64,000 bases of DNA from a virus, in IMG/VR virus record IMGVR_UViG_3300028966_000062; one strand, 5' to 3'. Positions 930 through 47,139 of this stretch are shown piece after piece. Position numbers and translations under genes: made by a program. The stretch's first letter is position 1. Each line of letters begins with the position of its first letter. The notes below the pieces were generated by a model, which searched no databases, was not told the DNA's origin, and saw nothing but the letters and a program-made list of their open reading frames with translations.

Positions 930-958
930 TTGACAAAATCAGTAGTATCCTGTATTCT
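930..958 (+). promoter_or_regulatory. sigma70-like promoter (TTGACA-17nt-TATTCT) embedding reverse copy of the 21-nt motif
   Basis: TTGACA at 930-935, 17-nt spacer ending GTATCCTG, TATTCT at 953-958; drives gene at 1047. Confidence 0.55.
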
Positions 959-965
959 ATAGCTA
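945..965 (-). repeat. 21-nt conserved motif copy R1 (GTATCCTGTATTCTATAGCTA on + strand)
   Basis: reverse complement TAGCTATAGAATACAGGATAC matches consensus; forms inverted repeat with copy at 1005-1025. Confidence 0.7.
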
Positions 966-1004
966 GAAAGGGCAGTCCGTCATAGGACTTTTATTTTTAC
1001 CATA

Positions 1005-1025
1005 TAGCTATACAATACAGGATAC
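1005..1025 (+). repeat. 21-nt conserved motif copy F1 (TAGCTATACAATACAGGATAC)
   Basis: consensus TAGCTATAnAAyACAGGATAC ~12 nt upstream of SD of gene 1047. Confidence 0.7.
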
Positions 1026-3986: not shown

Positions 3987-4292
3987 ATGGACGAAAGCAA
4001 AGTTGTGAAGCAGATTGCCGAATGGATGGTCAAAGAAGGTACAAAAAATACTACAGAAGGCAATTGGATTTTTCATATTGACGAAATCACAAAAGAATTT
4101 AACGTAAGCAAAATGTTTGTTGCGGCCTATTGTGGAGAGATTTTTGATTCACTTTATGAACACGAATCGGTTGCTGACGTGGAATGTACTCTACAAGAAG
4201 GCTCTGATTTTTATGTGAAAACTTTTGACGTTGATTTTTATACAAAATTTTGTCCCAATGTAGAGGATAAAGATTGGAGTGAGATTGTATGA
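3987..4292 (+). CDS. hypothetical protein, paralog of 7989..8483 (shared FDVDFYTxFCPN motif)
   Basis: ATG 3987 after GAGGTGATAAAA; sequence similarity to gene at 7989. Confidence 0.55.
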   Translation: MDESKVVKQIAEWMVKEGTKNTTEGNWIFHIDEITKEFNVSKMFVAAYCGEIFDSLYEHESVADVECTLQEGSDFYVKTFDVDFYTKFCPNVEDKDWSEIV

Positions 4293-4474
4293 CAAACATT
4301 GAAAAGAACATTATCCTCGCAGCTCTTTCTTCCTATCGGCGTAAGCTGATGGATCAGAGTGTTTCATTCCTTAGAGCTGGCAATCACGAGGACGCAAAGC
4401 AGTCAACGATGGAAGCAGCCAACGTAAATGCGCTGGTGATTAAGTTTACAAGAGAAAAGGAGTTTGCAATATGA
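4289..4474 (+). CDS. hypothetical protein (61 aa)
   Basis: overlapping stop/start ATGA. Confidence 0.4.
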   Translation: MTNIEKNIILAALSSYRRKLMDQSVSFLRAGNHEDAKQSTMEAANVNALVIKFTREKEFAI

Positions 4475-17158: not shown

Positions 17159-17389
17159 ATGAGTGAATATAAATTAAAGCCGTGTCCTTTTTGTGGTGGA
17201 GAAGTTACCGTTGCAGAGGGCAGTTATCGCCAAACACGATGGACGTATGTTACGAGAGGAAACAAAGAAAATAGGTGCAACTGCCATGTTTTCATGGAAA
17301 GCAAAACTTACTACTTTGATTCCTCTGAAAAAGACAAGGAAAGAATCAAAGCCGACCTTATCGAAGCGTGGAATAAGCGAGTCGAATAA
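17159..17389 (+). CDS. zinc-ribbon protein (76 aa)
   Basis: CPFCGG...CNCH motif; SD TAGGGAG. Confidence 0.45.
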   Translation: MSEYKLKPCPFCGGEVTVAEGSYRQTRWTYVTRGNKENRCNCHVFMESKTYYFDSSEKDKERIKADLIEAWNKRVE

Positions 17390-18779: not shown

Positions 18780-18833
18780 ATGGCATCATCTAAAATTTTA
18801 AACTTTTACAACAACAAAAAGATGTATAATATA

Positions 18834-18861
18834 TTGACTAAAACAAAAAGATGTGTATAAT
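18834..18861 (+). promoter_or_regulatory. strong sigma70-like promoter TTGACT-16-TATAAT, second of two tandem copies of AAAAAGATGTGTATAATATAT
   Basis: direct 21-nt repeats at 18816-18836 and 18846-18866 each carrying TATAAT. Confidence 0.5.
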
Positions 18862-18903
18862 ATATCTTGAAAGTTGTCTAAATGAGTGGAGGGCGGTGTT
18901 TTA

Positions 18904-19230
18904 ATGCGTGAGAGAAAGGTTCTGAAGGTCATACGAGTTGATGACTTTTTAAAGTACATAAGAAAAAAGAGAGTGTGGGTTTGTTTTGTTTGCAATGGTG
19001 TAGATGTTCACATGGTCTGTAACAAAATGAACGATGTTGGAACAGAGACACATGGGATCGTTAAAGGCATTGGCTTCTTCGGAAACGAAAGTCATATTGA
19101 GCTGCGGCAAGAATGCCACGAAGCAAGGAGGATTGAGCTTAGACCGGGCGATAAAGAGAAAGCGTATGAGATGATATTCGATAACACAAGCGTGTTCGTA
19201 TCAGAGAATCCCGAGTTGTACGGGCACTAA
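18904..19230 (+). CDS. hypothetical Cys-rich protein (108 aa)
   Basis: ATG 18904 after GGAGGG; CFVCNG...HMVCNK. Confidence 0.5.
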   Translation: MRERKVLKVIRVDDFLKYIRKKRVWVCFVCNGVDVHMVCNKMNDVGTETHGIVKGIGFFGNESHIELRQECHEARRIELRPGDKEKAYEMIFDNTSVFVSENPELYGH

Positions 19231-19249: not shown

Positions 19250-19278
19250 TTGACTTCTGAAATGGTATCCTGTATAAT
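19250..19278 (+). promoter_or_regulatory. sigma70-like promoter TTGACT-17-TATAAT embedding reverse copy R2 of 21-nt motif
   Basis: TTGACT 19250-55, spacer ends GGTATCCTG, TATAAT 19273-78. Confidence 0.6.
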
Positions 19279-19285
19279 ATAGCTA
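19265..19285 (-). repeat. 21-nt conserved motif copy R2 (GTATCCTGTATAATATAGCTA on + strand)
   Basis: matches consensus in reverse orientation. Confidence 0.7.
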
Positions 19286-19321
19286 TGGAACGGAGCTACA
19301 CTATTATAGAGGAGAAAAACT

Positions 19322-19741
19322 ATGGACAACAATATTGACCCAAAGGTCGGAGAGGTTTGGTTGGTCGATTTGTCCAATGCAACAGGTCATCAGCAGCGCG
19401 GTATTCGACCGTTCGTTGTGACAAGCAACAACAAGCGCAACTTCTTCAGTCCCACAATCAAAGGGAATCCGTTGTCTTCCAGAATATACAAGCGTTCTCC
19501 GGTTCATGTTCTACTCTCGAAAGAAGACTGCGATTTCCTAGAGGTTGATAGTATTGTTCTTTGTGAAGAGACTGATACACTTAACAAAGGACAGTTCATC
19601 AAAAAGCTTGGTGTCTTGTCTGAGCGTCATATGAATATGATCGCAATGGCAAGATGCAAGGATGAACCGTTTTTACTCGCAGCATTCCTGAGCGGCGTAC
19701 AACATACCATGGAATTTCAAAATTTTGCCGCATTTGCTTGA
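19322..19741 (+). CDS. MazF/PemK-family endoribonuclease toxin-like protein
   Basis: GEVWLVDLSNATGHQQRGIRPFVVTSN aligns with MazF GDLIWVDFDPTKGSEQAGHRPAVVLSP; later VLCEETDTLNKGQFIKKLG; no obvious antitoxin partner. Confidence 0.65.
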   Translation: MDNNIDPKVGEVWLVDLSNATGHQQRGIRPFVVTSNNKRNFFSPTIKGNPLSSRIYKRSPVHVLLSKEDCDFLEVDSIVLCEETDTLNKGQFIKKLGVLSERHMNMIAMARCKDEPFLLAAFLSGVQHTMEFQNFAAFA

Positions 19742-19794
19742 TTTTTTATAATGGTTAATGGTACACTACATATAATAAGAAGGAGTGTGCCACT

Positions 19795-20721
19795 ATGCTT
19801 ACTGAAGAAAAGATCAAAGCTTTTGCTGAAAAGTATTCTGATAGAAGCGGTGAGTTTGTTGTATCGACGCTTAACCATGTTCTGGGTTACGAGGCTGAGC
19901 GTGGGTATGAGTTGTTTGACTTCACAAAAGATGATTTCGTAAAGATGTTTGCCAAATATAATTGGGTGAACTCGAGTCGTTCGTTTAAAAATGTGAAGTC
20001 AATAATCACAGGCTACATCAAAAGCGAAAACAAAACAAGCATGTATGATCTGGCTGACTTTTCAGAGAGCGATGTAAGCGCAGACAATATGTATGCGGAT
20101 AAATACTTTGCATCAGTTGATGAGTTTGTTGACTTCTTAAATAAGTATGAAGAGCCATATCAGATTCGTATGAACGTGATTGCTGCACTGTACTGGATTG
20201 GCCTTACTTCTGAAGAAGTTTCTAACCTGACGATTAACGATGTCGATTTTGAATCTTGTACTGTTCTTGATAAGACAGGTGTTGATGCAAAGTTGATGGA
20301 TATTATTAAGCAGTGTTATGAAATGAAACAGTATGACGCTCCCAATAAGGGAGGGTATAGGGCATTCTATGTCATGAATGGTGATTACATCATTCGTAAA
20401 ACCGAGGATAGTATCGGTGCAGACAGTGACCCAAAGATGTCTGTGCATACAATTCATACCTATTTTATGCGGTTGAATAACATCCTCGAAAAAAGATATC
20501 ACTCAAAGGCTTTAGATCGAAGGCATCTAACCAGAAACGGCGAATACGTGAAGGTCTACGACTACTGTAAGAATAATCCAGAATTTAATCTTGCAGAACT
20601 TAGTTTCGGAAATGGTAAAGACCCTCTTGCAGACATTATCGGAAGAAAGTGTAGCAAGGTTGCCTACATTAGCTTCAGACAAGGATACAAAGGTTGGGTC
20701 GAATATTTCCATAAAAATTAA
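19795..20721 (+). CDS. hypothetical protein (308 aa), weak integrase core-binding-like N-terminus
   Basis: SD AAGGAG; no catalytic motifs recognised. Confidence 0.55.
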   Translation: MLTEEKIKAFAEKYSDRSGEFVVSTLNHVLGYEAERGYELFDFTKDDFVKMFAKYNWVNSSRSFKNVKSIITGYIKSENKTSMYDLADFSESDVSADNMYADKYFASVDEFVDFLNKYEEPYQIRMNVIAALYWIGLTSEEVSNLTINDVDFESCTVLDKTGVDAKLMDIIKQCYEMKQYDAPNKGGYRAFYVMNGDYIIRKTEDSIGADSDPKMSVHTIHTYFMRLNNILEKRYHSKALDRRHLTRNGEYVKVYDYCKNNPEFNLAELSFGNGKDPLADIIGRKCSKVAYISFRQGYKGWVEYFHKN

Positions 20722-20726
20722 AAACA

Positions 20727-20750
20727 GGGGGCTTCGGCTCCTTGATTTTA
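20727..20750 (+). terminator. rho-independent terminator-like hairpin (UUCG tetraloop) followed by T-rich tract
   Basis: GGGGC-TTCG-GCTCC then TTGATTTTA. Confidence 0.45.
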
Positions 20751-20756
20751 ATACGT

Positions 20757-20777
20757 TAGATATATAATACAGGATAC
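20757..20777 (+). repeat. 21-nt conserved motif copy F2 (TAGATATATAATACAGGATAC)
   Basis: upstream of gene 20808. Confidence 0.65.
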
Positions 20778-20807
20778 TTAAAAATAGTATTTGAATGGAG
20801 AATAACA

Positions 20808-22874
20808 ATGTCTGATTTCAAGAAATTTCGTGCACTACTGCAGGATCACTTCAATGAGATGGTGAAGGATGGCGCACCTCTGTTTATCACCAATGCAGAT
20901 GAGGATAAGCTATATGACCTCTATCTGGACAGCTTCCCGGCTGGCACGAACTCCATCTTCCGTAAGCGGCGTAAGTATGATTGCTCCTACTGCCGTCGTT
21001 TCGTAAAGAACATTGGTAAGCTGGTTTCCTTTATGGATGGTCAGATGGTTACCGTCTGGGATTTCGATACCAAGTCCGACGTTTATCAGCCGGTTGTGGA
21101 TGCGCTGGCTACTTATGTGAAAACCTGTGCTGTTGTGAATCCGTATTATGTTAGCCGCAATATGATCTCCGATGGCAAGTTCGGCACGGAGGTAAACTAT
21201 GAGTACGATGCTGATCATAAGGCGGTTCACACCTGGGATCATTTCGCTGTCGAGATTCCTCAGCGGTTCATTGTCAATTCCTGCGATGTGACTACCAAGA
21301 TGGCCGAGTGGCGTGATTCTGCTAATGTGTTCAAGCGTTCTCTGGAGGAGCTGACCATGGATGCCGTGGACACCGTACTTGAGCTGATTGCGCAGAACAG
21401 CCTGTATCGCGGCAAGGAGTTTGAATCTCTGGTTCGTGGCTTCAAAATCGATAAGCGAGTGTATGATCGTCTGCCTGATGAAAAGAAGTCCGCTTATGTT
21501 TGGATGGCTCCCGGCGGTGCGTCGATGAACCGGCTTCGTATTCGTAACACCGCTATCGGCACCCTTCTTATCAATTTGAGCGAAGGCATGGATGTGGATT
21601 CCGCCGTTACCGCCTTTGAGAAGGTTGTCGCTCCTGCCAATTACAAGCGTCCCAAAGCTATTTTCACTAAGAAGATGCTGGAAGATGCACAGAAAACCGT
21701 TACTGAGTTGGGTTACATGAACAGTCTGGGTCGCCGATTTGCCACTCTGGATGATATTACTGCCAACAATATTCTGTTCTGCAACCGCGATGCCGCTCCT
21801 CGTGTAATGGGGGCAATGAACCCGTTCGAGGCAATGGCAAAATCTATGGGCACCGATCCTAAGAAGTTCGGTCGCGCGGAGGAAATCGGCATCGACAAGT
21901 TCATCAGAGACGTGCTGCCGACTGCAACGGGCCTAGAGCTGTTTATGGAGAATCGTTTCGAGAAGAATATGATGTCTCTGATTGCTCTGCAGGATAAGGC
22001 TGCGCCGTCTATGTTCAAGTGGCCTAATGGTTTCAGTTGGGCATATACCGGCAACATGACTGACAGCCAGATTCGGGAGAACGTCAAGAATGCTGGCGGC
22101 AAAGTCGATGGCGTGCTGCGTTTCTCTATTCAGTGGAACGATAAGCCGGGCGAGTGGGATGAAAATGATGAGGATGCTCATTGCATTGAACCCGATAAGA
22201 ATCACATCTATTTCGGCAGCAAGTGGCACCCTCGTACTGATGGCCGCCTGGACGTAGATATTATGCGTCCCATTCGCTATAAGGCCGCGGTCGAGAATAT
22301 CACCTGGCCTGACATCAAAAAGATGAAGGAAGGCGAGTACAGCTTCTATGTAAACTGCTTCGCTAGTCGCGGCGGCAAAACCGGTTTCCGTGCTGAAATC
22401 GAATTCGATGGCAACATCTACTCGTTTAACTACGATAAGCCGCTGCATGGTGGTCAGAATGTAGCTGTGGCAAAGGTCACTCTGAAGGATGGCAAATTCT
22501 CTATCAAGGAACTGCTTCCCAGTTCTACCAGCACCCGTGAAATTTGGGGTGTGAGTTCCAACCAGTTCGTACCTGTGTCTGTGGCGATGTACTCTCCGAA
22601 CTACTGGGACGAACAGACCGGCAATGGCAATCGTCACTACTTCTTCATGCTCAAGGATTGCGTCAACCCCGAAAAGCCGAACGGATTTTACAACGAATTC
22701 CTGAAGGCGGAATTGCTACAGCATAAGCGAGTATTTGAGGCGCTGGGTTCTCAGATGGCAGTTCAGTCGGTAAATGATCAGCTGTCCGGCGTTGGATTCT
22801 CTGAAACGAAGCAGGATTCCTTTATTGTTAAGGTGCAGGGAGCTACTGAGCGAATTTTGAAAGTGGTTATCTGA
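20808..22874 (+). CDS. large hypothetical protein (688 aa), GC-rich codon usage unlike neighbours
   Basis: long ORF, SD AATGGAGAA; ~50 percent GC with CTG/GGC/CGT codon preference; no domain recognised. Confidence 0.7.
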   Translation: MSDFKKFRALLQDHFNEMVKDGAPLFITNADEDKLYDLYLDSFPAGTNSIFRKRRKYDCSYCRRFVKNIGKLVSFMDGQMVTVWDFDTKSDVYQPVVDALATYVKTCAVVNPYYVSRNMISDGKFGTEVNYEYDADHKAVHTWDHFAVEIPQRFIVNSCDVTTKMAEWRDSANVFKRSLEELTMDAVDTVLELIAQNSLYRGKEFESLVRGFKIDKRVYDRLPDEKKSAYVWMAPGGASMNRLRIRNTAIGTLLINLSEGMDVDSAVTAFEKVVAPANYKRPKAIFTKKMLEDAQKTVTELGYMNSLGRRFATLDDITANNILFCNRDAAPRVMGAMNPFEAMAKSMGTDPKKFGRAEEIGIDKFIRDVLPTATGLELFMENRFEKNMMSLIALQDKAAPSMFKWPNGFSWAYTGNMTDSQIRENVKNAGGKVDGVLRFSIQWNDKPGEWDENDEDAHCIEPDKNHIYFGSKWHPRTDGRLDVDIMRPIRYKAAVENITWPDIKKMKEGEYSFYVNCFASRGGKTGFRAEIEFDGNIYSFNYDKPLHGGQNVAVAKVTLKDGKFSIKELLPSSTSTREIWGVSSNQFVPVSVAMYSPNYWDEQTGNGNRHYFFMLKDCVNPEKPNGFYNEFLKAELLQHKRVFEALGSQMAVQSVNDQLSGVGFSETKQDSFIVKVQGATERILKVVI

Positions 22875-23339: not shown

Positions 23340-24008
23340 TTGATGAAAACCTACGAAAAAATCGAAACGGTGTTTAATCGTGATATCGAAGGCACTAAAA
23401 AGCTGATTATCGGTGATTTTCGTAATGAAACCATTGAGTTCCTACAAAATAATGAGTGGGAATTTACTGAGAAAGTGGATGGCACGAATGTGCGTGTTTG
23501 CTGGGACGGTCATAAAGTCAGCTTTGCCGGACGAACTGAACGTGCAGAACTTCCAAAGAATCTGCTGAATGCACTAAATGAAATTTTCGGTACTTCTGAA
23601 GCAGAGGAATTGTTTGAACAGACTTACGGTGATAAAGAAGTAATCCTCTTTGGAGAGGGTTATGGTGGCAAAATTCAAGGATGTGGTCATGGATACCGAC
23701 CTGATGAGTGGTTCATCTTGTTCGATGTCCTGATTGGTGATAACTACCAGAGTAGAGAGTGGGTTGAAAAGACTGCTCAGATGTTTGGTATCCAAGTAGT
23801 TCCTATTTTGTTTACAGGGACGATTCGAGACGGTATCAAGTTTGTGTGTCAACATCCGAAGTCTACGGTTTCGATTGATGACATTTATATGGAAGGTCTG
23901 GTTGGTCGTCCAAAGGTTGAGTTGAAAGACCGCAGAGGTAATCGAGTAATTGTCAAAATCAAGTGGAATGACTTCAAGGATATCGCTGATACGCTTGGTA
24001 ATGAGTAA
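23340..24008 (+). CDS. RNA ligase-like nucleotidyltransferase (Rnl2-type NTase domain only)
   Basis: motif I EKVDGTN (KxDGxN), EGYGGK, IVKIKWNDF (KxK) in 222 aa. Confidence 0.55.
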   Translation: MMKTYEKIETVFNRDIEGTKKLIIGDFRNETIEFLQNNEWEFTEKVDGTNVRVCWDGHKVSFAGRTERAELPKNLLNALNEIFGTSEAEELFEQTYGDKEVILFGEGYGGKIQGCGHGYRPDEWFILFDVLIGDNYQSREWVEKTAQMFGIQVVPILFTGTIRDGIKFVCQHPKSTVSIDDIYMEGLVGRPKVELKDRRGNRVIVKIKWNDFKDIADTLGNE

Positions 24009-24076: not shown

Positions 24077-24161
24077 GCCAAGGTGCTGCAAATGGGAGAC
24101 AGGGCGAGCCCAAACCTCGCTGTGGAAACACATGCGGTTTCGAATACCGTCCTTGGCACCA
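24077..24161 (+). tRNA. tRNA-Leu (anticodon CAA), class II long variable arm
   Basis: acceptor GCCAAGG/CCTTGGC, anticodon arm GCGAG-CCCAAAC-CTCGC, variable hairpin TGTG-GAAA-CACA, T-arm GCGGT-TTCGAAT-ACCGT, discriminator A + CCA; position 33 is C (unusual). Confidence 0.55.
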
Positions 24162-24200
24162 GAGTCCGAATATTCATTTATTAGATGTTGGAGGCATTTT

Positions 24201-25097
24201 ATGAAAAAGATTGATAAACTTACAAAAGAAGAAATTGAGCAAGCTTTTGAGGAAAGCAAAAGTTAGGCTGCGGTTGCGGAGAAGCTTGGATATTCAAAAA
24301 ATGGTGGAAGTACGAATCACGTACTTCAAGATTGTGCAAAAGCGCACAATATAAATACTTCTCATTTCACTGGGCAGGGCTAGAATAAAGGGAACGTGGA
24401 TTTGTCTCGTTTTAAAAATGGAAGACGAATAAAGGATTTAAAATCCGCACTTCTTTCTATCAAACCATATAAGTGTGAATGTTGTGGAAACTCTGAATAG
24501 ATGGGCAAACAGATTCCATTGCAAGTACATCATATTGACGGAAACCACATAAATAATGAGTTAGACAATCTTCAGTTGCTTTGCCCGAATTGTCATGCAC
24601 AAACTGATAATTGGTGCAAAAATAATATCGGGAAATACAAGACTGTGAGCGATAAAGATTTTCTTGATGCGTTAAAAACAACATCAACTATAAATGCCGC
24701 TCTTGAAAAAGTTGGAATTTATTATTCTGCGAGAGTGTGGTATGACAAAGCAAGGCAACTAATGATTGAAAACAACGTAACTCAAATTCCACGTGAAAAG
24801 GTTATCCGTGAGAAAAAAGAAAGAAAAAGAAGAAAAATCAAATATTGTTCAATATGCGGAAAAGAAATGAGTCCGCGTGCAAAAGGATGTCTCTGTAAAA
24901 ATTGTTTAAAAGGAAATCCTTACAGTAAACGCATTGATTTTCCTGATAAAGAACAATTGATGGTAGACACAGCTTCAATGTCCTTTCAAGATGTTGGAAG
25001 AAAATATGGAGTATCAGGAAATGCCATACGTAAATGGTGCAAGTATTATGATTTACCATACAGAAAATTAGATATGAACAGTAAAGAGGAAAATTAA
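24201..25097 (+). CDS. HNH homing endonuclease with N- and C-terminal HTH-like regions; single reading frame containing three in-frame TAG codons (24264, 24381, 24498)
   Basis: KCECCGNSE-TAG-MGKQIPLQVHHIDGNHINNELDNLQLLCPNCHAQT HNH signature; no frameshift between segments; TAGs sit where conserved Trp is expected. Confidence 0.7.
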
Positions 25098-25141
25098 CGT
25101 TGATAAAAAAGAAGCTGTAAAAAAATACAGCTTCTATATAT

Positions 25142-25229
25142 GCCGCAGTGATGGAGTGACATACATTTCCCGCTTAAACCGGGACGCCTGAAATATGGAT
25201 CGTGGGTTTGAATCCCACCTTCGGCACCA
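25142..25229 (+). tRNA. tRNA-Leu (anticodon TAA)
   Basis: acceptor GCCGCAG/CTTCGGC, anticodon arm TCCCG-CTTAAAC-CGGGA, long variable arm, T-arm GTGGG-TTTGAAT-CCCAC, ACCA end. Confidence 0.6.
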
Positions 25230-25232
25230 TAT

Positions 25233-25306
25233 CGAGAACGTGGTGTAATGGTAACACGCCTGCTTTGGGAGCAGGAGTTGCAGTTCAAATCTGACGTTTT
25301 CGACCA
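25233..25306 (+). tRNA. probable tRNA-Pro (anticodon TGG), noncanonical T-stem
   Basis: acceptor CGAGAAC/GTTTTCG + A + CCA; anticodon arm CCTGC-TTTGGGA-GCAGG; T-loop TTCAAAT but only 3 bp T-stem. Confidence 0.35.
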
Positions 25307-25411
25307 GTTGGTTTCCCAACATGCTTTTCATAAAATACCTTTCCTATTATTCTTGGCTCTCCAAAAATGGAGCAATAGGACACAGCAAGCCAAGTATATA
25401 ATGCGTCGTAG

Positions 25412-25485
25412 CCAAGCGGTTAAGGCAGGGTCCTTTGAAGTCCCGATTGCGAAAGTTCGATTCTTTCCGGCGCAATTTATATGCC
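25412..25485 (+). tRNA. tRNA-Gln (anticodon TTG)
   Basis: acceptor TGCGTCG/CGGCGCA, D-arm GCC-AAGCGGTTAA-GGC, anticodon loop CTTTGAA, T-arm GAAAG-TTCGATT-CTTTC. Confidence 0.55.
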
Positions 25486-25492
25486 ACAGTGG

Positions 25493-25567
25493 TGGAATTG
25501 ACCTACACATCTATTTTAGGGGTAGACGCCGAAAGGCTTGCGAGTTTGAGTCTCGCCTGTGGCACCA
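25493..25567 (+). tRNA. tRNA-Leu (anticodon TAG)
   Basis: acceptor GCCACAG/CTGTGGC + A + CCA; anticodon arm TCTAT-TTTAGGG-GTAGA; long variable arm; T-arm GCGAG-TTTGAGT-CTCGC. Confidence 0.6.
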
Positions 25568-25666
25568 CGGTCATAGAATGGTTGCGTACCGTTTGTTGAT
25601 CTCCTTTACTATTATTCCCAGCTCGCCAGTGATGGTGCAGTAGTGTTTTGTAAGCTGGGTTTTCAT

Positions 25667-25741
25667 GCGGCGGTCGTACAACGGCTAGTACATCAGCCTT
25701 CCAAGCTGAGGATGAGGTTTCGACTACCTTTCGCTGCTCCA
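25667..25741 (+). tRNA. tRNA-Gly (anticodon TCC)
   Basis: acceptor GCGGCGG/TCGCTGC, D-arm GTAC-AACGGCTA-GTAC, anticodon arm TCAGC-CTTCCAA-GCTGA, T-arm GAGGT-TTCGACT-ACCTT, T + CCA. Confidence 0.6.
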
Positions 25742-25930
25742 ATCTCGTATGGGTAGGATCTTTGGCGGTCAGATCTGGCCGCGCCTGTGCGAGATACCAC
25801 CCCGAAAGGGGCGAGATATAGGAAATGTGCATCGCTGTTATTCCTTCCTCGTCTATATGATATAGATGCAATAGTGTTTTATAAGGAAGGTGCCCAGTTG
25901 AATAGTTGCAGCTATTTAACTGGTTTTTAT

Positions 25931-26011
25931 GGGACATTATCTCAATTGGTTAGAGAACTCAGCTCATAACTGAGCATATGTATCACGGTTCAAGTCCGAC
26001 ATGTCCCACCA
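25931..26011 (+). tRNA. tRNA-Met (anticodon CAT; initiator/elongator/Ile2 not resolved)
   Basis: acceptor GGGACAT/ATGTCCC + A + CCA; D-arm TCTC-AATTGGTTA-GAGA; anticodon arm CTCAG-CTCATAA-CTGAG; T-loop TTCAAGT with weak T-stem. Confidence 0.55.
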
Positions 26012-26114: not shown

Positions 26115-26135
26115 TAGCTATATAACACAGGATAC
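26115..26135 (+). repeat. 21-nt conserved motif copy F3 (TAGCTATATAACACAGGATAC)
   Basis: immediately upstream of SD AAAAGGAGGTGG of the C5-MTase gene. Confidence 0.7.
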
Positions 26136-30485: not shown

Positions 30486-30506
30486 TAGCTATGCAATACA
30501 GGATAC
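30486..30506 (+). repeat. 21-nt conserved motif copy F4 (TAGCTATGCAATACAGGATAC)
   Basis: upstream of SD TAAGGAG of gene 30522. Confidence 0.7.
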
Positions 30507-30521
30507 ATAAGGAGTTTAGTT

Positions 30522-42340: not shown

Positions 42341-45300
42341 GTGGCAGATAAAAAATTCAATGAAAATATGATCCGTTGCTACATCAGGATAAAACGAGTC
42401 TTTTATCCGAAAGATGGGAGGGAGGTGGAGCCCGGCGGCTTCGCCACTTTCTCTGCCGAGGTGGTAAAAGTCAAGCAGGGAAATCCTGTTATGAGTCGAT
42501 ACAGTGACCTCCGGTTAAAGGGCAACGTTCCTAGCCTCGATATGAATAAAACTTATTCGTTCTGTGGTGAGTATGTTCATCATGAAAAGTTTGGTGACCA
42601 GTATAAAATCATTTATATGAATGAGTTTCAAGAGATTACTGACCCGGAAGAACAGAAAAGCTTTCTCCATTATATCCTGACCGACCATCAGTTTGAGATA
42701 CTTTATGAAGCATTCGAAAATCCGTATGAGATTATCAAGAATGGTGATATCAAGTCGCTTTGCACTGTTAGTGGTATTACGGAAGGCAGAGCTCAAAAGA
42801 TCATTGATACTTATGAAAACAACATTGATAACAGTGAGGCGTACACAAAGCTAATTGAGTACGGTCTGACCCCTAGTGCTATTGAAAAGCTTGTCCGTCA
42901 ATATCATGGTGCAGACACTCTGGTGAGAAAGATTGAAGAGAATCCTTACGTCCTGATTGACGATGTGTATGGCATCGGCTGGAAGAAGGCTGACGCTCTA
43001 GCTCTGAATATGGGGTTGAAACACAATTCGCAATTTAGAATTGAAGCTTACGTCATGCACTTTCTTGCTGGCCGTGCCGAAGAAGGCAACTCTATCATCT
43101 CGGCAAACCAGACAATCAATAGCTGTATTAAGGAACTTGATTTGAATGAGGGTGACCAAGAAGTCATCAAAAGGGCACTTTTCCATTTGCATGATGCTCG
43201 TGAAACGCTTTGGTGGAGCGATGACCGTCAGGAATTTGCTTTAACTAGAGTGTGGAATCTGGAAGATAGTATTGCGAAGGAAATCAAGCGTCTGGCGGAT
43301 GTTCCTGTTGAGCCGATTGGTCGAAATATGGATGCAGCAATCAATGAGGCCGAGGATGAACTTGGTATCGAGTACACTGAAGAGCAGAGAGATGCTATTA
43401 AAAAGGTATGCTCTAGCAACGTCTGTATCTTAACAGGTTACGGCGGATGCCTTGATGCAGAGATGGAGTTCTTTAATGGTATCCAATGGAAAAAAATAAA
43501 AGATTATGTTAAGGGCGACAAAGTTCTTCAATATAATGAAAATGGGACTACAACGCTTGTTGAGCCTGAGAAATATGTAAAATTTAAATGTGAATATCTA
43601 TATCACATGAAAAACAAGTCGGGCAGTATCAATCAACTATTGAGTGCAGAGCATAATGTTGTTTACTTGACCAGCAAAAACAATTTAGCTAAAATCCCAA
43701 TGTGGGAGTTGTATCAAAGAAATGTTAAACGAAAGTCTGGGTTTAACGGACATTTTATAACAACGTTCAATTATGATGGTCCAGGAATCGATTTGAGCGA
43801 TGCTGATATTAGACTAATGTGTGCTGTTATTTGCGATGGGTCGTTTTTGAAGGATCATAAATCAGCTTGGTGTAGAGTAAACGTAAAAAAAGAGCGAAAG
43901 AAACTTCGCATGAGAAGACTTCTTTTGGAAAGTGGTAGATACTTTGATGAGCATCAGTGGAATCCAAAAGACTTGGAATATTCGAACTTTGTCTTTTATG
44001 CTCCAAGAAAAGAAAAAAGATTTACTTCGTATTGGTATAGCTGTAATCATCATCAGCTAGAGGTGATTTGCGATGAGATTCTAAATTGGGACGGTCACGT
44101 AAAAGAGGGGAGACGGAAAGATTTTAGTACACTGATTAAAGAAACGGCAGATTTTGTTCAGTTCGCATTTTCTTCTTGTGGTTATCGTTCTGTTGTACAT
44201 GAATCAAATATTGAACGGCACGGTAGAATGGTCACAGAGTATAATGTTCATATTGTGCAACACTCGAATGGAAAAGTTTCTCTTATGACAAAAGGCAGTA
44301 AAAGCGATATTGATATTGTTCGTTCAAGCGATGGATATAAGTATTGTTTTACGGTTCCGTCTCATATGTTTCTGATAAGATATAATGGAAGAATTTGTGT
44401 CACAGGCAACACCGGTAAAAGTACCGTTGTCGCTGGTGTTCTAAAGGTTCTTCGTGGTAAGTCTTTTGCTCAGACTGCACTTTCTGGTCGTGCCGCTGCT
44501 CGTATGCAGGAGATTACTGGTCAGGACGGTAAGACTATTCACCGTCTTCTTGGATATGACATCGAGAACGGTGGGTTTGTTCACGATAAGGACAATCCTC
44601 TGGATGAGGACATTATCATTCTGGATGAGACCTCTATGGTTGGTGCTCAATTGTTTTACGATTTGATTCAGGCAATCGAAACTGGCAAGCGATTCATCAT
44701 GATTGGTGATGACGGCCAGCTTGAGAGTATCGGTATGTGTAACATCTTCAAGGATATGCTTGCATCTAAGGTTGTTCCTGTGGCTCGTTTGACTAAGATC
44801 CATCGTCAGGCAGCCAAGTCTGCAATTATCACGGAGAGCATTAAGGTTCGTAACGCTACGCAGTTGGTTCCTTATGGCTGGGCTGGCAGTGAGATTCGTG
44901 GTGAACTTCGTGATTTGGAGCTTGATATCTATAAAGACGCAAGTGAGTCATTCAATCACATCATCAATCAGTACCGTACCTTATATAATAAGGTAGGGAA
45001 TGATAGTTCGAAGATTCAGATTGTACTTCCACAGAAGCTGCGTGGCAGTATCTGCACCTACGAAGTCAATAATGCTATTCAGGAAATTGTGAATCCGAGT
45101 CGTGGTCAAGCAGAAGCAAAAGTCACAATCTATGGTGATGGCAAGGATAGGGTGTATACTCTGCGTGAGGGCGATCAGGTCATCATCAACAAGAACAACT
45201 ATGAGCTTCACACATACAATCTCAAGACAAAGAAAAAAGAAGAGAAGTGTCCGGTGTTCAACGGAAACCGTGGCATTATCCGAAAGATTGAGAGTAGTTT

Positions 45301-45634
45301 TATCCTAGTTGATTTTGACCAGTGGGGAACAATCTTCATTCCACATTACTTTGGCGGAAACAATATCTGGGCAACACTTGAGCTTGCTTATGCTTTGAGT
45401 TGTCATAAACTGCAGGGCAGTGAAGCTCCGTATGTGATTGTTGGTATGGACAACTCTGCGTACTTGATGCTGACGAGAGAATGGCTCTATACGGCCATCA
45501 CTCGTGCAAAGAAGTATTGTATGATTTGCGCCGAAACTCACGCTCTTGATCGGGCTGTAAAGACTTCGAGAGTTCCATATAAGCGGACGTTCTTGAAGGA
45601 ATTTTTACGGAAAGAATTTTCAGAAAAGCATTGA
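42341..45634 (+). CDS. RecD-like SF1 helicase carrying an intein inside the Walker A P-loop
   Basis: ILTGYGG-[intein]-TGKSTVVAG, IILDETSMV, FIMIGDDGQLESIG, CHKLQGSEAPYVIV, YTAITRAKK. Confidence 0.8.
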   Translation: MADKKFNENMIRCYIRIKRVFYPKDGREVEPGGFATFSAEVVKVKQGNPVMSRYSDLRLKGNVPSLDMNKTYSFCGEYVHHEKFGDQYKIIYMNEFQEITDPEEQKSFLHYILTDHQFEILYEAFENPYEIIKNGDIKSLCTVSGITEGRAQKIIDTYENNIDNSEAYTKLIEYGLTPSAIEKLVRQYHGADTLVRKIEENPYVLIDDVYGIGWKKADALALNMGLKHNSQFRIEAYVMHFLAGRAEEGNSIISANQTINSCIKELDLNEGDQEVIKRALFHLHDARETLWWSDDRQEFALTRVWNLEDSIAKEIKRLADVPVEPIGRNMDAAINEAEDELGIEYTEEQRDAIKKVCSSNVCILTGYGGCLDAEMEFFNGIQWKKIKDYVKGDKVLQYNENGTTTLVEPEKYVKFKCEYLYHMKNKSGSINQLLSAEHNVVYLTSKNNLAKIPMWELYQRNVKRKSGFNGHFITTFNYDGPGIDLSDADIRLMCAVICDGSFLKDHKSAWCRVNVKKERKKLRMRRLLLESGRYFDEHQWNPKDLEYSNFVFYAPRKEKRFTSYWYSCNHHQLEVICDEILNWDGHVKEGRRKDFSTLIKETADFVQFAFSSCGYRSVVHESNIERHGRMVTEYNVHIVQHSNGKVSLMTKGSKSDIDIVRSSDGYKYCFTVPSHMFLIRYNGRICVTGNTGKSTVVAGVLKVLRGKSFAQTALSGRAAARMQEITGQDGKTIHRLLGYDIENGGFVHDKDNPLDEDIIILDETSMVGAQLFYDLIQAIETGKRFIMIGDDGQLESIGMCNIFKDMLASKVVPVARLTKIHRQAAKSAIITESIKVRNATQLVPYGWAGSEIRGELRDLELDIYKDASESFNHIINQYRTLYNKVGNDSSKIQIVLPQKLRGSICTYEVNNAIQEIVNPSRGQAEAKVTIYGDGKDRVYTLREGDQVIINKNNYELHTYNLKTKKKEEKCPVFNGNRGIIRKIESSFILVDFDQWGTIFIPHYFGGNNIWATLELAYALSCHKLQGSEAPYVIVGMDNSAYLMLTREWLYTAITRAKKYCMICAETHALDRAVKTSRVPYKRTFLKEFLRKEFSEKH
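43448..44410 (+). mobile_element. intein (321 aa) with LAGLIDADG homing-endonuclease domain
   Basis: starts Cys (CLDAEMEFF), block B SAEHNVVYLT, LAGLIDADG-like DIRLMCAVICDGSF, ends ...RICVTGN followed by +1 Thr; removal restores GYGGTGKST. Confidence 0.7.
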
Positions 45635-45659
45635 CAATTATATTTGTATCCTATATAAT
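45631..45659 (+). promoter_or_regulatory. sigma70-like promoter TTGACA-17-TATAAT embedding reverse motif copy R3
   Basis: TTGACA 45631-36, TATAAT 45654-59. Confidence 0.6.
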
Positions 45660-45666
45660 ATAGTTA
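45646..45666 (-). repeat. 21-nt motif copy R3 (variant GTATCCTATATAATATAGTTA on + strand)
   Basis: reverse orientation, CAGG to TAGG variant. Confidence 0.55.
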
Positions 45667-45704
45667 TAAAAAGTCTCCATCCCGGAGGCTTAAAATTCTC
45701 TCTT

Positions 45705-45725
45705 TAGATACATAACACAGGATAC
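45705..45725 (+). repeat. 21-nt motif copy F5 (TAGATACATAACACAGGATAC)
   Basis: followed within 10 nt by terminator hairpin. Confidence 0.65.
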
Positions 45726-45734
45726 GAGAAAGAG

Positions 45735-45768
45735 AAGGCTTGCTCGTAACGACAAGCCTTTCTTTATT
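45735..45768 (+). terminator. rho-independent terminator (AAGGCTTG / CAAGCCTT stem, TCTTTATT tail)
   Basis: 8-bp perfect stem, 10-nt loop, U-rich tail. Confidence 0.6.
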
Positions 45769-45773
45769 AGCCA

Positions 45774-45794
45774 TAACTATATAACACAGGATAC
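45774..45794 (+). repeat. 21-nt motif copy F6 (TAACTATATAACACAGGATAC)
   Basis: immediately upstream of SD GCAAGGAGG of ligase gene. Confidence 0.7.
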
Positions 45795-45807: not shown

Positions 45808-47139
45808 ATGACAGATAAAGAGCTCATAGGTAAGCTTGATGCGATGGTTAAGGCATTGCAGAAAGCAAAGAAGAAAACGGATAAGACCAACATTTTGCTG
45901 GATGCACGTAAGGATTTTGGAGAAGAAGCTGATGAGCTGATGGCATTCTTCCGATTTCTGCTTGACCCGTCAATTGTTACTGGCCTGTCTGATGCAAAGA
46001 TCAACAAGAAGGTAACTGTAAGGCCGGACATCGACGTTCAGTATCTCAGCTGCGGATACCTTTATATTATGGGTGCTGGCCACAATACAGGCTCTGATGC
46101 ATCCATCGCAACAATCCAGAATTATTTACATAAAAATCCTGAATATGAAGAGTTTCTGAAGCGACTGTTCACTAAGAACCTGCCGATCGGGGTCGAGGCA
46201 GCTACCATCAATAAGGTATATGGCGAGGAAATTATTCCTGTCTGGGAGGTTCAGCAGGGATACCCGATTGGTAAGGTTAAGCTGAAGGATGGTATTTGGT
46301 TCAGTTTAAGCCAGAAGATGAATGGAAATAGGGGCACCATGTATAAAGGCGAGCTCATCTCTCGGCAGGCTCAGAAGTTTAAAGGACTCGACCATATAAA
46401 GAATGACCTGCTCGCTCTATACGATGAAGACGCCTCAAGGCGAGATATGTGGGTGTTTGATGGTGAGCTGATCTACAAGAACCCAGAAAGAATGTCGGAC
46501 GGAGAGGCTTTTCGTTATGGCACTGGCCTACTTAATTCTGACAACAAGGATAAGACTGGAATCAAATTTGTGATTTTTGATGTGATTCCTGTTGTAGAGT
46601 TCGACCGTGGAAAGTGTACTATCCCATATAAAATTCGCCGTATTGGGTTAAATTGTCTTCGCGCAGAGATTACTCGCAAGCACCTTGAGAATATTGAGAT
46701 TGTTCCCATGGTCTATGAAGGAAAAGACCAAAACGTGATTCCAAAGTGGCTTGATTATGCGGTCGAGCACGATTGGGAAGGTCTTATGTTGAACACGGAC
46801 GTCCCTTATCGCCGGGCTCGTCACAACGGATGTCTCAAAATCAAGCGATTCTACACTGTTGATCTACGAATCACAGCGATTGAGGAAGGTCAGAACCGTC
46901 TGACTGGTACGATGGGCGCTCTTGTTGTTGACTACAAGGGCAACGAGCTTCGTGTCGGCTCTGGTTTTGATGATGCTACGAGAGCTGCTGTGTGGGCGAA
47001 TCCTGATAATTACATCGGTAAGATTGTGGAATGTAAGTACAAAGAGGTCACGATGGACAAAAAGACCGGCCTTGAGTCTCTGCAATTCCCGACGTTTGTA
47101 AGATTTAGAGATGATAAGAACGAGGTGTCTTATGGCTGA
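45808..47139 (+). CDS. ATP-dependent DNA ligase (variant motif I KMNGNR)
   Basis: KMNGNRG (motif I, Asn for Asp), VFDGELIYK (III), DWEGLMLN (IV), LKIKRFY (V). Confidence 0.7.
   Translation: MTDKELIGKLDAMVKALQKAKKKTDKTNILLDARKDFGEEADELMAFFRFLLDPSIVTGLSDAKINKKVTVRPDIDVQYLSCGYLYIMGAGHNTGSDASIATIQNYLHKNPEYEEFLKRLFTKNLPIGVEAATINKVYGEEIIPVWEVQQGYPIGKVKLKDGIWFSLSQKMNGNRGTMYKGELISRQAQKFKGLDHIKNDLLALYDEDASRRDMWVFDGELIYKNPERMSDGEAFRYGTGLLNSDNKDKTGIKFVIFDVIPVVEFDRGKCTIPYKIRRIGLNCLRAEITRKHLENIEIVPMVYEGKDQNVIPKWLDYAVEHDWEGLMLNTDVPYRRARHNGCLKIKRFYTVDLRITAIEEGQNRLTGTMGALVVDYKGNELRVGSGFDDATRAAVWANPDNYIGKIVECKYKEVTMDKKTGLESLQFPTFVRFRDDKNEVSYG

Follow-up and report, generated by a model that had tools for sequence, protein, structure and literature searches.

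A phage-encoded MazF-family protein forms a conserved unit with an SPbeta-type repressor in a human-gut phage

The 64,000-nucleotide stretch of viral DNA analysed here (IMG/VR record IMGVR_UViG_3300028966_000062; hereafter the window) carries at positions 19322-19741 a gene for a protein of the PemK/MazF endoribonuclease family, directly followed by a homolog of mrpR, the gene of the SPbeta master repressor. It is firmly supported that the protein belongs to the MazF family, retains the catalytic arginine with Ser/Thr at the place of the catalytic threonine and is strongly conserved, that its gene has its own promoter and no recognisable antitoxin, that the gene forms a conserved unit with the SPbeta-type repressor gene, and that the carrier is an abundant prophage, probably of Blautia. 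Two further features are well supported as patterns, namely a dispersed 21-nucleotide (nt) element that lies on the mazF promoter (P_mazF) and at eight other intergenic sites, and a uniquely conserved UACAUA in the spacer between the two genes. The arrangement suggests that the MazF arm of the decision between lysis and lysogeny, for which Bacillus SPbeta-like phages rely on their host, is encoded in this phage's own genome. The overall model, in which a functional phage-borne MazF is held by the repressor and feeds into lysogeny control, is put forward tentatively and has in our estimate a little less than an even chance of being correct.

The MazF/PemK label itself is already public: NCBI annotates the same Blautia protein, and phage MazF-like genes form a PHROG. 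The linkage to MrpR, the C-terminal extension of the protein, the repeats that bracket the gene pair and the site in the spacer are not described in the literature searched.

Identity, fold and conservation of the phage MazF

19322..19741, + strand: mazF-like gene for a 139-amino-acid (aa) PemK/MazF-family endoribonuclease, with Pfam, PHROG, Protein Data Bank (PDB) and AlphaFold2 (AF2) matches
19655..19738, + strand: codons of the C-terminal extension (...DEPFLLAAFLSGVQHTMEFQNFAAFA; ...ARCKDEPFLLAAFLSGVQHTMEFQNFAAFA), which comprises about residues 112-139 and which canonical MazF lacks

The open reading frame (ORF) is preceded by the ribosome-binding site GAGGAG, and all approaches agree on the MazF/PemK-like identity that had been proposed from the sequence alone. 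The profile check places the Pfam family PF02452 (PemK_toxin) on residues 8-108, well over the cut-off (E 3.8e-19, 69.3 bits, cut-off 23.1), and phrog_1936, a "MazF-like growth inhibitor", matches at E 1.6e-21. A profile of the phage MazF family finds Staphylococcus aureus MazF (E 1e-19) and Bacillus subtilis MazF/EndoA (E 3e-16) in the PDB. The AF2 model (mean predicted local distance difference test score, pLDDT, 87; predicted TM-score, pTM, 0.78) has the SH3-like beta-barrel and C-terminal helix of the MazF/CcdB type, and Foldseek aligns it with the S. aureus and B. subtilis MazF at E 2e-11, with target TM-scores of 0.81-0.85 and 30-36% identity. The N-terminal likeness to MazF noticed in the sequence-only reading is real, although "almost residue-for-residue" was too strong a description, as 11 of 24 residues are identical to B. 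subtilis MazF and the overall identity to that protein is 33%. The protein scores 20.5 bits against the NCBIfam equivalog of Escherichia coli MazF, which has a threshold of 120 bits, and is therefore not an ortholog of the E. coli protein.

Residue roles follow the published work on MazF catalysis (PMC8634880, PMC10893535); invariance was judged over 30 family sequences, and 20 family members were aligned with the reference MazFs. The catalytic Arg25 of B. subtilis MazF has its counterpart in R29, which is invariant in 30/30 members, whereas the position of the catalytic Thr48 is occupied by S52 and is Ser or Thr in all 20 aligned members. G22, P30 and N40, corresponding to G18, P26 and N36 of the B. 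subtilis protein, are likewise conserved. The loss of catalytic residues, which had been named beforehand as a possible objection, was thus looked at, and both the arginine and the Ser/Thr are in place. The position of Glu20 is taken by Q24, a nearly invariant glutamine across the family.

Selection within the phage species was followed in 77 near-identical genomes as the ratio of nonsynonymous to synonymous codon differences, which is 0.11 for mazF, 0.81 for the ORF upstream and 0.59 for the mrpR-like gene downstream. No disrupted copy of mazF is found at the 106 loci with the ORF called, and the low ratio together with the intact copies therefore indicates strong purifying selection on mazF. 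In keeping with these values, the distinct proteins within the species (L005-L084) comprise 19 variants of MazF at no less than 94% identity, 38 of the upstream small protein down to 73% and 46 of the MrpR-like protein down to 78%.

The protein continues for some 28 residues beyond the usual C-terminal helix of MazF, and PDB MazFs align with it only up to about residue 111-114. The AF2 model folds the extension into two extra helices, residues 116-123 and 130-138 (pLDDT about 80-89), and D114, E115, P116, L118, F122 and F132 are invariant in the 30 sequences. A search of 1.84 billion representatives collapses the phage MazF family into a single 50% cluster, and distant MazF-like proteins of 27-48% identity bear a similar extension. 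Since the C-terminus of canonical MazF lines part of the groove that binds the MazE helix (PMC10893535), one may speculate that the extension blocks host MazE or acts in cis. Some of the distant extension-bearing proteins (P0089, P0129 and P0188 in alignment A6) have His in place of the catalytic Arg (G-Y-H-P, G-L-H-L, G-R-H-L), so that catalysis may be altered or lost in a part of the extended subfamily.

The downstream repressor gene and the conserved gene order

18904..19230, + strand: small upstream ORF, 108 aa, fast-evolving, first of the conserved trio
19795..20721, + strand: mrpR/yopR/sroF-like gene for a 308-aa homolog of the SPbeta-type master repressor, identified by profile searches
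20725..20744, + strand: terminator-like hairpin closing the mazF-mrpR unit, 8-bp stem with five G-C pairs, then ATTTTAAT

The gene downstream of mazF encodes a homolog of the SPbeta master repressor, and mazF and mrpR make up a conserved module; both points had escaped the sequence-only reading. A tblastn search of the INPHARED phages with the MrpR-like protein gave no match, and its identity is therefore drawn from profile searches; single-protein scans of viral contigs with P0014 and P0009 gave no matches either. Pfam MrpR_N_CB matches the 308-aa protein at E 0.002, which for the window protein alone lies below Pfam's own cut-off, while the precomputed annotation assigns MrpR_C_cat and the PHROG match is phrog_5830, integrase. 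A profile built from seven lineages of the MrpR-like protein aligns over about 300 residues with PDB entry 9rd5 (E 3.3e-6) and with the YopR/MrpR structures 8bj6, 8a0a and 8bjv (E 3-4e-4). MrpR has a tyrosine-recombinase fold from which the catalytic set has been lost (PMC10516654). No Arg, His or Lys is invariant across the MrpR-like lineages, which leaves no recombinase catalytic set and fits MrpR; the 308-aa protein combines the tyrosine-recombinase fold with absence of the R-K-H-R-H/W set, as is characteristic of the MrpR/YopR/SroF type.

Independent lineages were defined by clustering the downstream proteins at 80%, which gave 10 MrpR clusters. The order of small ORF, mazF and mrpR-like gene is kept in every diverged lineage examined, and also around a MazF of 48% identity (L092) whose gene overlaps that of the MrpR-like protein (hhalign probability 98.7%). 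Across the family the MazF proteins are 58-96% identical and the MrpR-like proteins 22-29%. The mazF-mrpR spacer is free of terminators, but mrpR is followed by a terminator-like hairpin that, by reading, is flanked by T-rich stretches on both sides.

The mazF promoter and the lack of a recognisable antitoxin

19250..19278, + strand: P_mazF, sigma-A-type promoter TTGACT-17-TATAAT, 11 of 12 consensus matches
19268..19313, + strand: 12-nt inverted repeat TCCTGTATAATA / TATTATAGAGGA (arms 19268-19279 and 19302-19313) joining the -10 region to the Shine-Dalgarno sequence (SD) of mazF

The strong private promoter seen in the sequence-only reading is indeed present, and within 12 kb only two sites reach its grade, P_mazF being one of them. 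Of seven aligned diverged lineages, six have a -35 box of the TTGAC type and a -10 box at this position; in the remaining one, L089, the -35 lies outside the aligned stretch. The -10 region is also part of an inverted repeat with 92% complementary arms 22 nt apart. In a transcript started at P_mazF the 5′ arm is missing, and the leader remains unstructured (-0.6 kcal/mol). The ribosome-binding site of mazF would then be masked on read-through transcripts from upstream and exposed on those from P_mazF, a design that appears to recur at mrpR.

As had been stated beforehand, neither flank of mazF shows a recognisable MazE/PemI-like antitoxin: Pfam, PHROGs, NCBIfam and PADLOC reveal no MazE-, PemI-, AbrB- or RHH-type domain in either neighbour, and the precomputed Pfam annotation gives no antitoxin-type domain in the called genes within ±10 kb of mazF. 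A weak test for MazE-like ORFs across the whole window was also negative, and the locus shows no Rfam RNA family and no repeat array that would point to an RNA antitoxin. The adjacent, coupled MazE-type antitoxin gene that defines a type II mazEF operon is thus not recognised at the phage locus.

An alternative put forward earlier, in which the "Cys-rich" product of the 18904 ORF neutralises the toxin, is not supported by the comparison. This protein is only 16-24% identical to its positional counterparts in other lineages and shares no invariant residue with them, the cysteines included, and its predicted fold is YojF/PH-like and does not resemble a known antitoxin fold. The ORF is separated from mazF by 91 nt which contain the separate strong promoter. 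The small protein might co-vary with the repressor in the manner of an antirepressor-like partner.

A dispersed 21-nt element

19265..19285, + strand: best copy of the 21-nt element, lying across the spacer and the -10 box of P_mazF; candidate operator
20757..20777, - strand: inverted copy after the mrpR terminator and upstream of gene 20808; arms of 21 nt, 90% complementary
945..1025: two copies, 945-961 (+) and 1009-1025 (-)
26119..26135, - strand: copy just upstream of the ribosome-binding site of gene 26163
30490..30506, - strand: copy just upstream of the ribosome-binding site of gene 30522
45646..45794: three copies, 45646 (+), 45709 (-) and 45778 (-), between genes 42341-45634 and 45808-47139

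The conserved motif noticed at the promoter is genuine, as TGTATAATATA occurs seven times against 1.6 expected, and it can be extended to the 21-nt element GTATCCTGTATAATATAGCTA, of which the window has nine copies within three mismatches against 0.22 expected (0/100 shuffles reach nine). All nine copies lie between ORFs. Copies at 945, 19265 and 45646 share one orientation and overlap promoters of the TTGAC type; those at 1009, 20761, 26119, 30490 and 45778 have the opposite orientation and are placed immediately ahead of ribosome-binding sites. The copy at P_mazF is kept in all eight variants listed of 28 at the species level, while the adjoining promoter spacer varies.

The copies at 19265-19285 and 20757-20777 bracket the mazF-mrpR pair. 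In L001, L002, L085 and L087, different, lineage-specific repeats of 15-25 nt likewise occur both around the mazF promoter and behind the mrpR of the lineage (p <= 0.02 each). With the window included, bracketing repeats are thus seen in five of seven lineages. Repeats that differ from lineage to lineage while keeping their places are the pattern that would be expected of operators co-evolving with a fast-evolving repressor, and the 21-nt element is accordingly regarded as a candidate operator of the MrpR-like protein.

Two regions beside these copies deserve mention. Directly after the module and behind the inverted copy, a gene at 20808-22874 encodes a 688-aa protein (phrog_1735, E 1e-248; DUF8224); its start is matched at 81% DNA identity over 20797-21998 by the human faecal phage MT835544.1, and no other INPHARED record comes close to this region in its DNA sequence. 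Positions 18805-18862, upstream of the small ORF, hold a tandem duplication of a 29-nt promoter unit (TTTACAACAACAAAAAGATGTATAATATA / TTGACTAAAACAAAAAGATGTGTATAATA). The two promoter-like sites stacked in this way contain TGTATAATATA, as P_mazF does, and are devoid of the GTATCC of the 21-nt element. No LexA/SOS box was seen on reading 18780-18905, where no formal search was made.

A candidate cleavage site between mazF and mrpR

19767..19772, + strand: TACATA (U^ACAUA), candidate MazF cleavage site in the spacer
19738..19767, + strand: candidate promoter P_mrpR, TTGATT-18-TACACT, the -35 overlapping the mazF stop codon
19760..19791, + strand: predicted RNA hairpin GGUACACU...AGUGUGCC with UACAUA at the top, the 3′ arm abutting or overlapping the mrpR SD

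The MazF proteins of B. subtilis, Listeria and S. aureus cut strictly at U^ACAUA (bioRxiv 10.64898/2026.08.06.743204), which is also the site of S. thermophilum MazF (PMC10893535). Over the mazF-mrpR spacers of eight core lineages, 53-76 nt long, TACATA is the only one of the 4096 hexamers found in at least seven, and it is present in all eight. Within the species it is kept in 10/10 spacer variants, one of which has a 2-nt deletion right beside the site. The ORFs of mazF and mrpR contain no TACATA in any of 10 lineages. Among the genes of the window the hexamer is over-represented on the sense strand, with 22 occurrences against 12.2 ± 3.1 expected (z 3.3, rank 49 of 3706 hexamers), while its antisense count and its one-base variants are at expectation.

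The spacer also holds a candidate promoter for mrpR, which reads TTGAYN-17/18-TATYCT in the sister lineages. The general form TTGNNN-17/18-TA(Y)NCT occurs in seven of the eight core lineages, with the two boxes 17-18 nt apart even in lineages whose -35 box has moved with respect to the stop codon.

Finally, a hairpin that pairs an anti-SD sequence with the SD of mrpR is predicted in all eight core lineages (z -1.0 to -3.9). Pyrimidine-rich bases 5′ of UACAUA pair with the SD region, in the window as 19760-19767 with 19784-19791, and UACAUA is placed in or beside the loop. On average the SD core pairs with an upstream partner at a probability of 0.75, compared with 0.41 in 53 control genes with comparable spacers (Mann-Whitney p 0.0016). 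These tests used anchored folding with controls.

Some related patterns were considered and set aside. Avoidance of the 5-mer UACAU in the module was rejected, as the mrpR ORF of the window holds three TACAT and just the 6-mer is absent. A general placement of UACAUA in the 5′ leaders of the phage was likewise rejected, with only three sites and no pattern. Separately, at 30490-30521 the 21-nt copy ending in ...GGATAC is followed by ATAAGGAG, which creates a TACATA (30504) 12 nt before the start codon of gene 30522 and thereby a second candidate MazF site abutting a ribosome-binding site.

A model for the mazF-mrpR unit

In phages phi3T and SPbeta the MazF of the host favours lysogeny. It is released from MazE when the first products of the repressor operon (YopM/SroA, SroB) bind this antitoxin; AimX and YosL, as mimics of MazE, inhibit it. 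MazF reportedly degrades most phage mRNAs, the sroF operon excepted (PMC10769878; bioRxiv 2023.04.27.537455; bioRxiv 2025.11.27.690993). In SPbeta, ten promoters carry the repeated element SPBRE as a binding site for MrpR, among them P_yopM, from which a MazE-binding protein is made. SroF, a monomer when bound, recognises non-palindromic sites that can be as long as 24 nt. Enrichment of MazF sites in phage genes has been reported for both phi3T and SPbeta.

On this background the following course of events may be proposed. In the absence of repressor, on infection or after induction, P_mazF would fire and give a mazF-mrpR transcript. The MazF made from it would cut transcripts bearing UACAUA, over-represented in the phage's own genes, and would spare the site-free mazF and repressor ORFs. 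The accumulating repressor would in turn bind the 21-nt elements, including the copy on the -10 box of P_mazF, and switch off mazF along with the other element-bearing promoters. In the lysogen the toxin would be silenced transcriptionally, with a weak internal promoter maintaining the repressor, and no protein antitoxin would therefore be needed.

A more specific version assigns a role to the site in the spacer. There MazF would cleave the transcript reading through from mazF, a short way ahead of the mrpR ribosome-binding site, which would both separate mazF from mrpR and remove the anti-SD arm that masks mrpR translation. In such an antitoxin-free, self-limiting circuit, the cut at U^ACAUA would end MazF's own message and unmask translation of the repressor, which would then shut P_mazF. 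This version we consider doubtful, while granting it an appreciable chance.

Several observations weigh against the proposed model. The RNase activity and the specificity are inferred from proteins to which the phage MazF is just 33-36% identical, and the change from Glu to Gln at the Glu20 position, beside the catalytic loop, could alter either; in MazF-Da the E20A substitution nearly abolishes activity (PMC8634880). The spacer TACATA is absent from two more distant lineages, L092 and L104. Its absence from the two ORFs compares with 6.0 occurrences expected from background and with 2.1-2.5 under synonymous-codon shuffles, where P(0) is 0.06-0.10; as stand-alone evidence this absence was rejected, being not significant under the shuffles. 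The enrichment in phage genes is moderate, within the top 1.3% of hexamers. The site lies just after the conserved promoter-like -10 box (TATYCT), and it could have been conserved for a role in the promoter or at the transcription start, or because a host MazF recognises it. In the window itself the hairpin stem touches just the 3′ edge of the mrpR SD (P 0.17), and long-range folds give mixed accessibility of the site, high in four of eight lineages, so that uniform accessibility was rejected. Because P_mazF shows a like arrangement of -10 and anti-SD sequences without UACAUA, the hairpin may simply insulate translation from read-through. Bracketing repeats were not found in L088 and L089 among the seven lineages compared. 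Finally, the called genes within ±10 kb include no AimX/YosL-like antagonist and no arbitrium genes (aimR-aimP-aimX), in a search whose sensitivity is limited by the small size and fast evolution of these proteins and by the coverage of 64 kb of a phage of about 130 kb.

Should the more specific version hold, a widespread prophage of the human gut would use its "toxin" RNase as a built-in activator of lysogeny that acts after transcription, and the MazF-lysogeny link of the Bacillus arbitrium phages would be a general design of SPbeta-type switches, with the MazF carried by either host or phage. The steering of SPbeta-like phages to lysogeny by MazF has been worked out recently, in Bacillus only and through the host toxin-antitoxin system; under the overall model the link between MazF and the repressor would be portable, and testable outside Bacillus in a very abundant human-gut Blautia prophage. 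Orphan phage MazF genes may in this way be silenced by a phage repressor and limited by a site in their own transcript and not by an antitoxin.

Alternative explanations

The unit might instead be an ordinary toxin-antitoxin or defence module with an unrecognised antitoxin, acting in addiction, abortive infection or superinfection exclusion, and MazEF systems can indeed restrict phages. Candidate antitoxins would be the upstream 108-aa protein, the MrpR-like protein (with the toxin first, as in higBA and mqsRA), the MazE of the Blautia host, or the protein's own extension. The three-gene order kept in all lineages is compatible with such a module, as is the rapid divergence of both neighbours, since antitoxins usually outpace toxins in evolution. 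The overlap of mazF with the MrpR-like gene in L092 is typical of translationally coupled pairs, and a DNA-binding protein encoded downstream of a toxin, together with repeats at the promoter, resembles an autoregulated toxin-antitoxin operon. The C-terminus that forms the MazE groove (PMC10893535) is moreover the part extended here by two conserved helices. However, neither neighbour has an antitoxin-type domain or fold or a PADLOC match, and the complete lack of invariant residues in the upstream protein, next to a toxin conserved at 58-96%, is hard to square with a binding interface. The 91-nt gap with a separate strong promoter between that ORF and mazF, the lack of a MazE-like ORF in the window (by a weak test), and that of an RNA antitoxin family or repeat array also speak against it, and we regard this explanation as unlikely, though a serious contender.

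Alternatively, the protein could be an early lytic nuclease for host take-over, repressed in the lysogen and expressed from a strong early promoter to degrade host mRNA. A near-consensus promoter under a candidate operator shared with other gene starts would suit such a role, and solitary MazF-like phage genes are common, occur in varied contexts with no annotated antitoxin and are classed under "host takeover" in PHROGs. If UACAUA is the specificity, however, the phage genes carry an excess of sites and the phage's own lytic transcripts would be cut; the host shut-off suggested in the sequence-only reading is weakened on the same condition, as the phage genes are enriched in the site and not purged of it. 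The conserved pairing with a lysogeny repressor and the site-free repressor ORF point to lysogeny control, an argument that fails if the specificity differs. Taken together, host take-over appears rather improbable.

Regulation by binding, with a catalytically weakened RNA-binding protein of MazF fold, is very improbable: Gln replaces the Glu20 of B. subtilis MazF throughout the family and some distant extension-bearing relatives have His for the catalytic Arg, but R29, P30, G22, N40 and Ser/Thr52 are kept under strong purifying selection.

The last alternative links MazF to the RNA-repair and tRNA genes of the phage, such that ends made by MazF are resealed in a reversible RNA remodelling or counter-defence. 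An RNA ligase gene at 23340-24008 (PF09414, E 3.9e-16) and seven tRNA genes at 24077-26011 (Leu three times, Pro, Gln, Gly, Met) lie 2.6-5 kb downstream, a fused AAA_33-Metallophos-RNA_lig_T4_1 protein of 736-754 aa is encoded directly after mrpR in L002 (7591-9855), L085 (7583-9814) and L091 (11535-13745), and a kinase/phosphatase/ligase acts on the 2′,3′-cyclic-phosphate and 5′-OH ends that MazF-type RNases leave. Since repair genes are absent from that position in L001, L087 and L088 while mrpR is always adjacent, and RNA-repair genes of phages are generally taken to counter anticodon nucleases of the host, this is the least probable of the explanations considered.

Comparison with known systems

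A close parallel to the unit is the sroA-F operon (= yopMNOPQR) of SPbeta and phi3T together with host MazEF, whose repressor MrpR/YopR/SroF is the homolog of the one described here (PMC10516654, PMC10769878). A gene of the MazF pathway heads the unit behind a promoter bearing a dispersed repeat, the candidate operator, comparable to P_yopM with its SPBRE; MazF sites abound in the phage genes and are missing from the repressor gene; and families YorF and YorH of SPbeta occur near the Blautia-phage module. In contrast to SPbeta, the Blautia phage encodes MazF itself and not proteins that free the host MazF from MazE. Its unit consists of two genes and a variable small ORF instead of six genes, has no arbitrium genes or AimX/YosL-type MazE mimic recognised among the genes within ±10 kb, contains the conserved UACAUA between mazF and the repressor gene, and belongs to a host from Blautia (Lachnospiraceae) and not Bacillus.

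The cellular MazF proteins of B. subtilis (MazF/EndoA) and S. aureus (PDB 4MDX, 4ME7, 4MZM; U^ACAU(A) cutters) are the best structural and sequence matches of the phage protein and share with it the Pfam family, the fold, the catalytic Arg, a Ser or Thr at the catalytic Thr position and the equivalents of G18, P26 and N36; the phage protein differs in its 33-36% identity, in the Gln at the Glu20 position, in the 28-residue extension, in the lack of an upstream mazE and in being phage-borne. PHROG 1936 groups other MazF-like proteins that are likewise encoded by phages with no annotated antitoxin (for example Lactobacillus phage Satyr, Psychrobacillus phage Perkons, Enterocloster phage PMBT24 and Blautia phage NatCom_27009). 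Those proteins differ in being about 120 aa long, 30-40% identical, without the extension and without an MrpR-like neighbour; their genes lie among structural, replication or unknown genes, and the literature searched describes no function for them.

A resemblance may also be drawn to RacR-YdaS/YdaT of the E. coli rac prophage, where a toxic prophage gene is kept off by an adjacent repressor gene (PMC5700373); such repression is presumed for mazF. The toxin and repressor families differ between the two systems, and the genes considered here are co-oriented, probably co-transcribed, and the toxin is a predicted RNase with a candidate site in the shared transcript.

Phage, host and distribution

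The carrier is an abundant human-gut phage of about 130 kb that exists also as a prophage, and its host is probably Blautia, as judged from source names only. In the best 80 of 146 matching IMG/VR contigs, mostly 110-140 kb long, identity is 97% or higher. In the assembly collection, 2119 blocks contain the exact protein, and the contigs concerned reach 706 kb. NCBI names it [quoted passage not shown], and the source name is that of a Blautia metagenome-assembled genome. A scan of species-representative genomes for the MazF family gave 66 pattern matches of which none was confirmed, and the host assignment therefore rests on the source names. Of the organisms given for the 74 INPHARED records that hold a relative of this MazF, none is a Bacillus phage, consistent with the use of host MazF by Bacillus phages.

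Related contigs carry the SPbeta gene families YorF and YorH, and AAA_24, and the sister contigs have a phage_integrase-family gene and DUF6291 some 6-7 kb upstream of mazF. About 2 kb upstream of mazF, positions 17159-17389 of the window (L090 7838-8068) encode a 76-aa Cys-rich protein annotated, in the precomputed set, as Lar_restr_allev (PF14354, restriction alleviation). Other large phages (L104-L107, IMG/VR contigs of 111-146 kb) have at 4001-4423 a distant MazF-like gene, 35% identical to the query P0034, followed after 62 nt by a 417-aa ORF, with TACATA in neither the ORFs nor the spacer.

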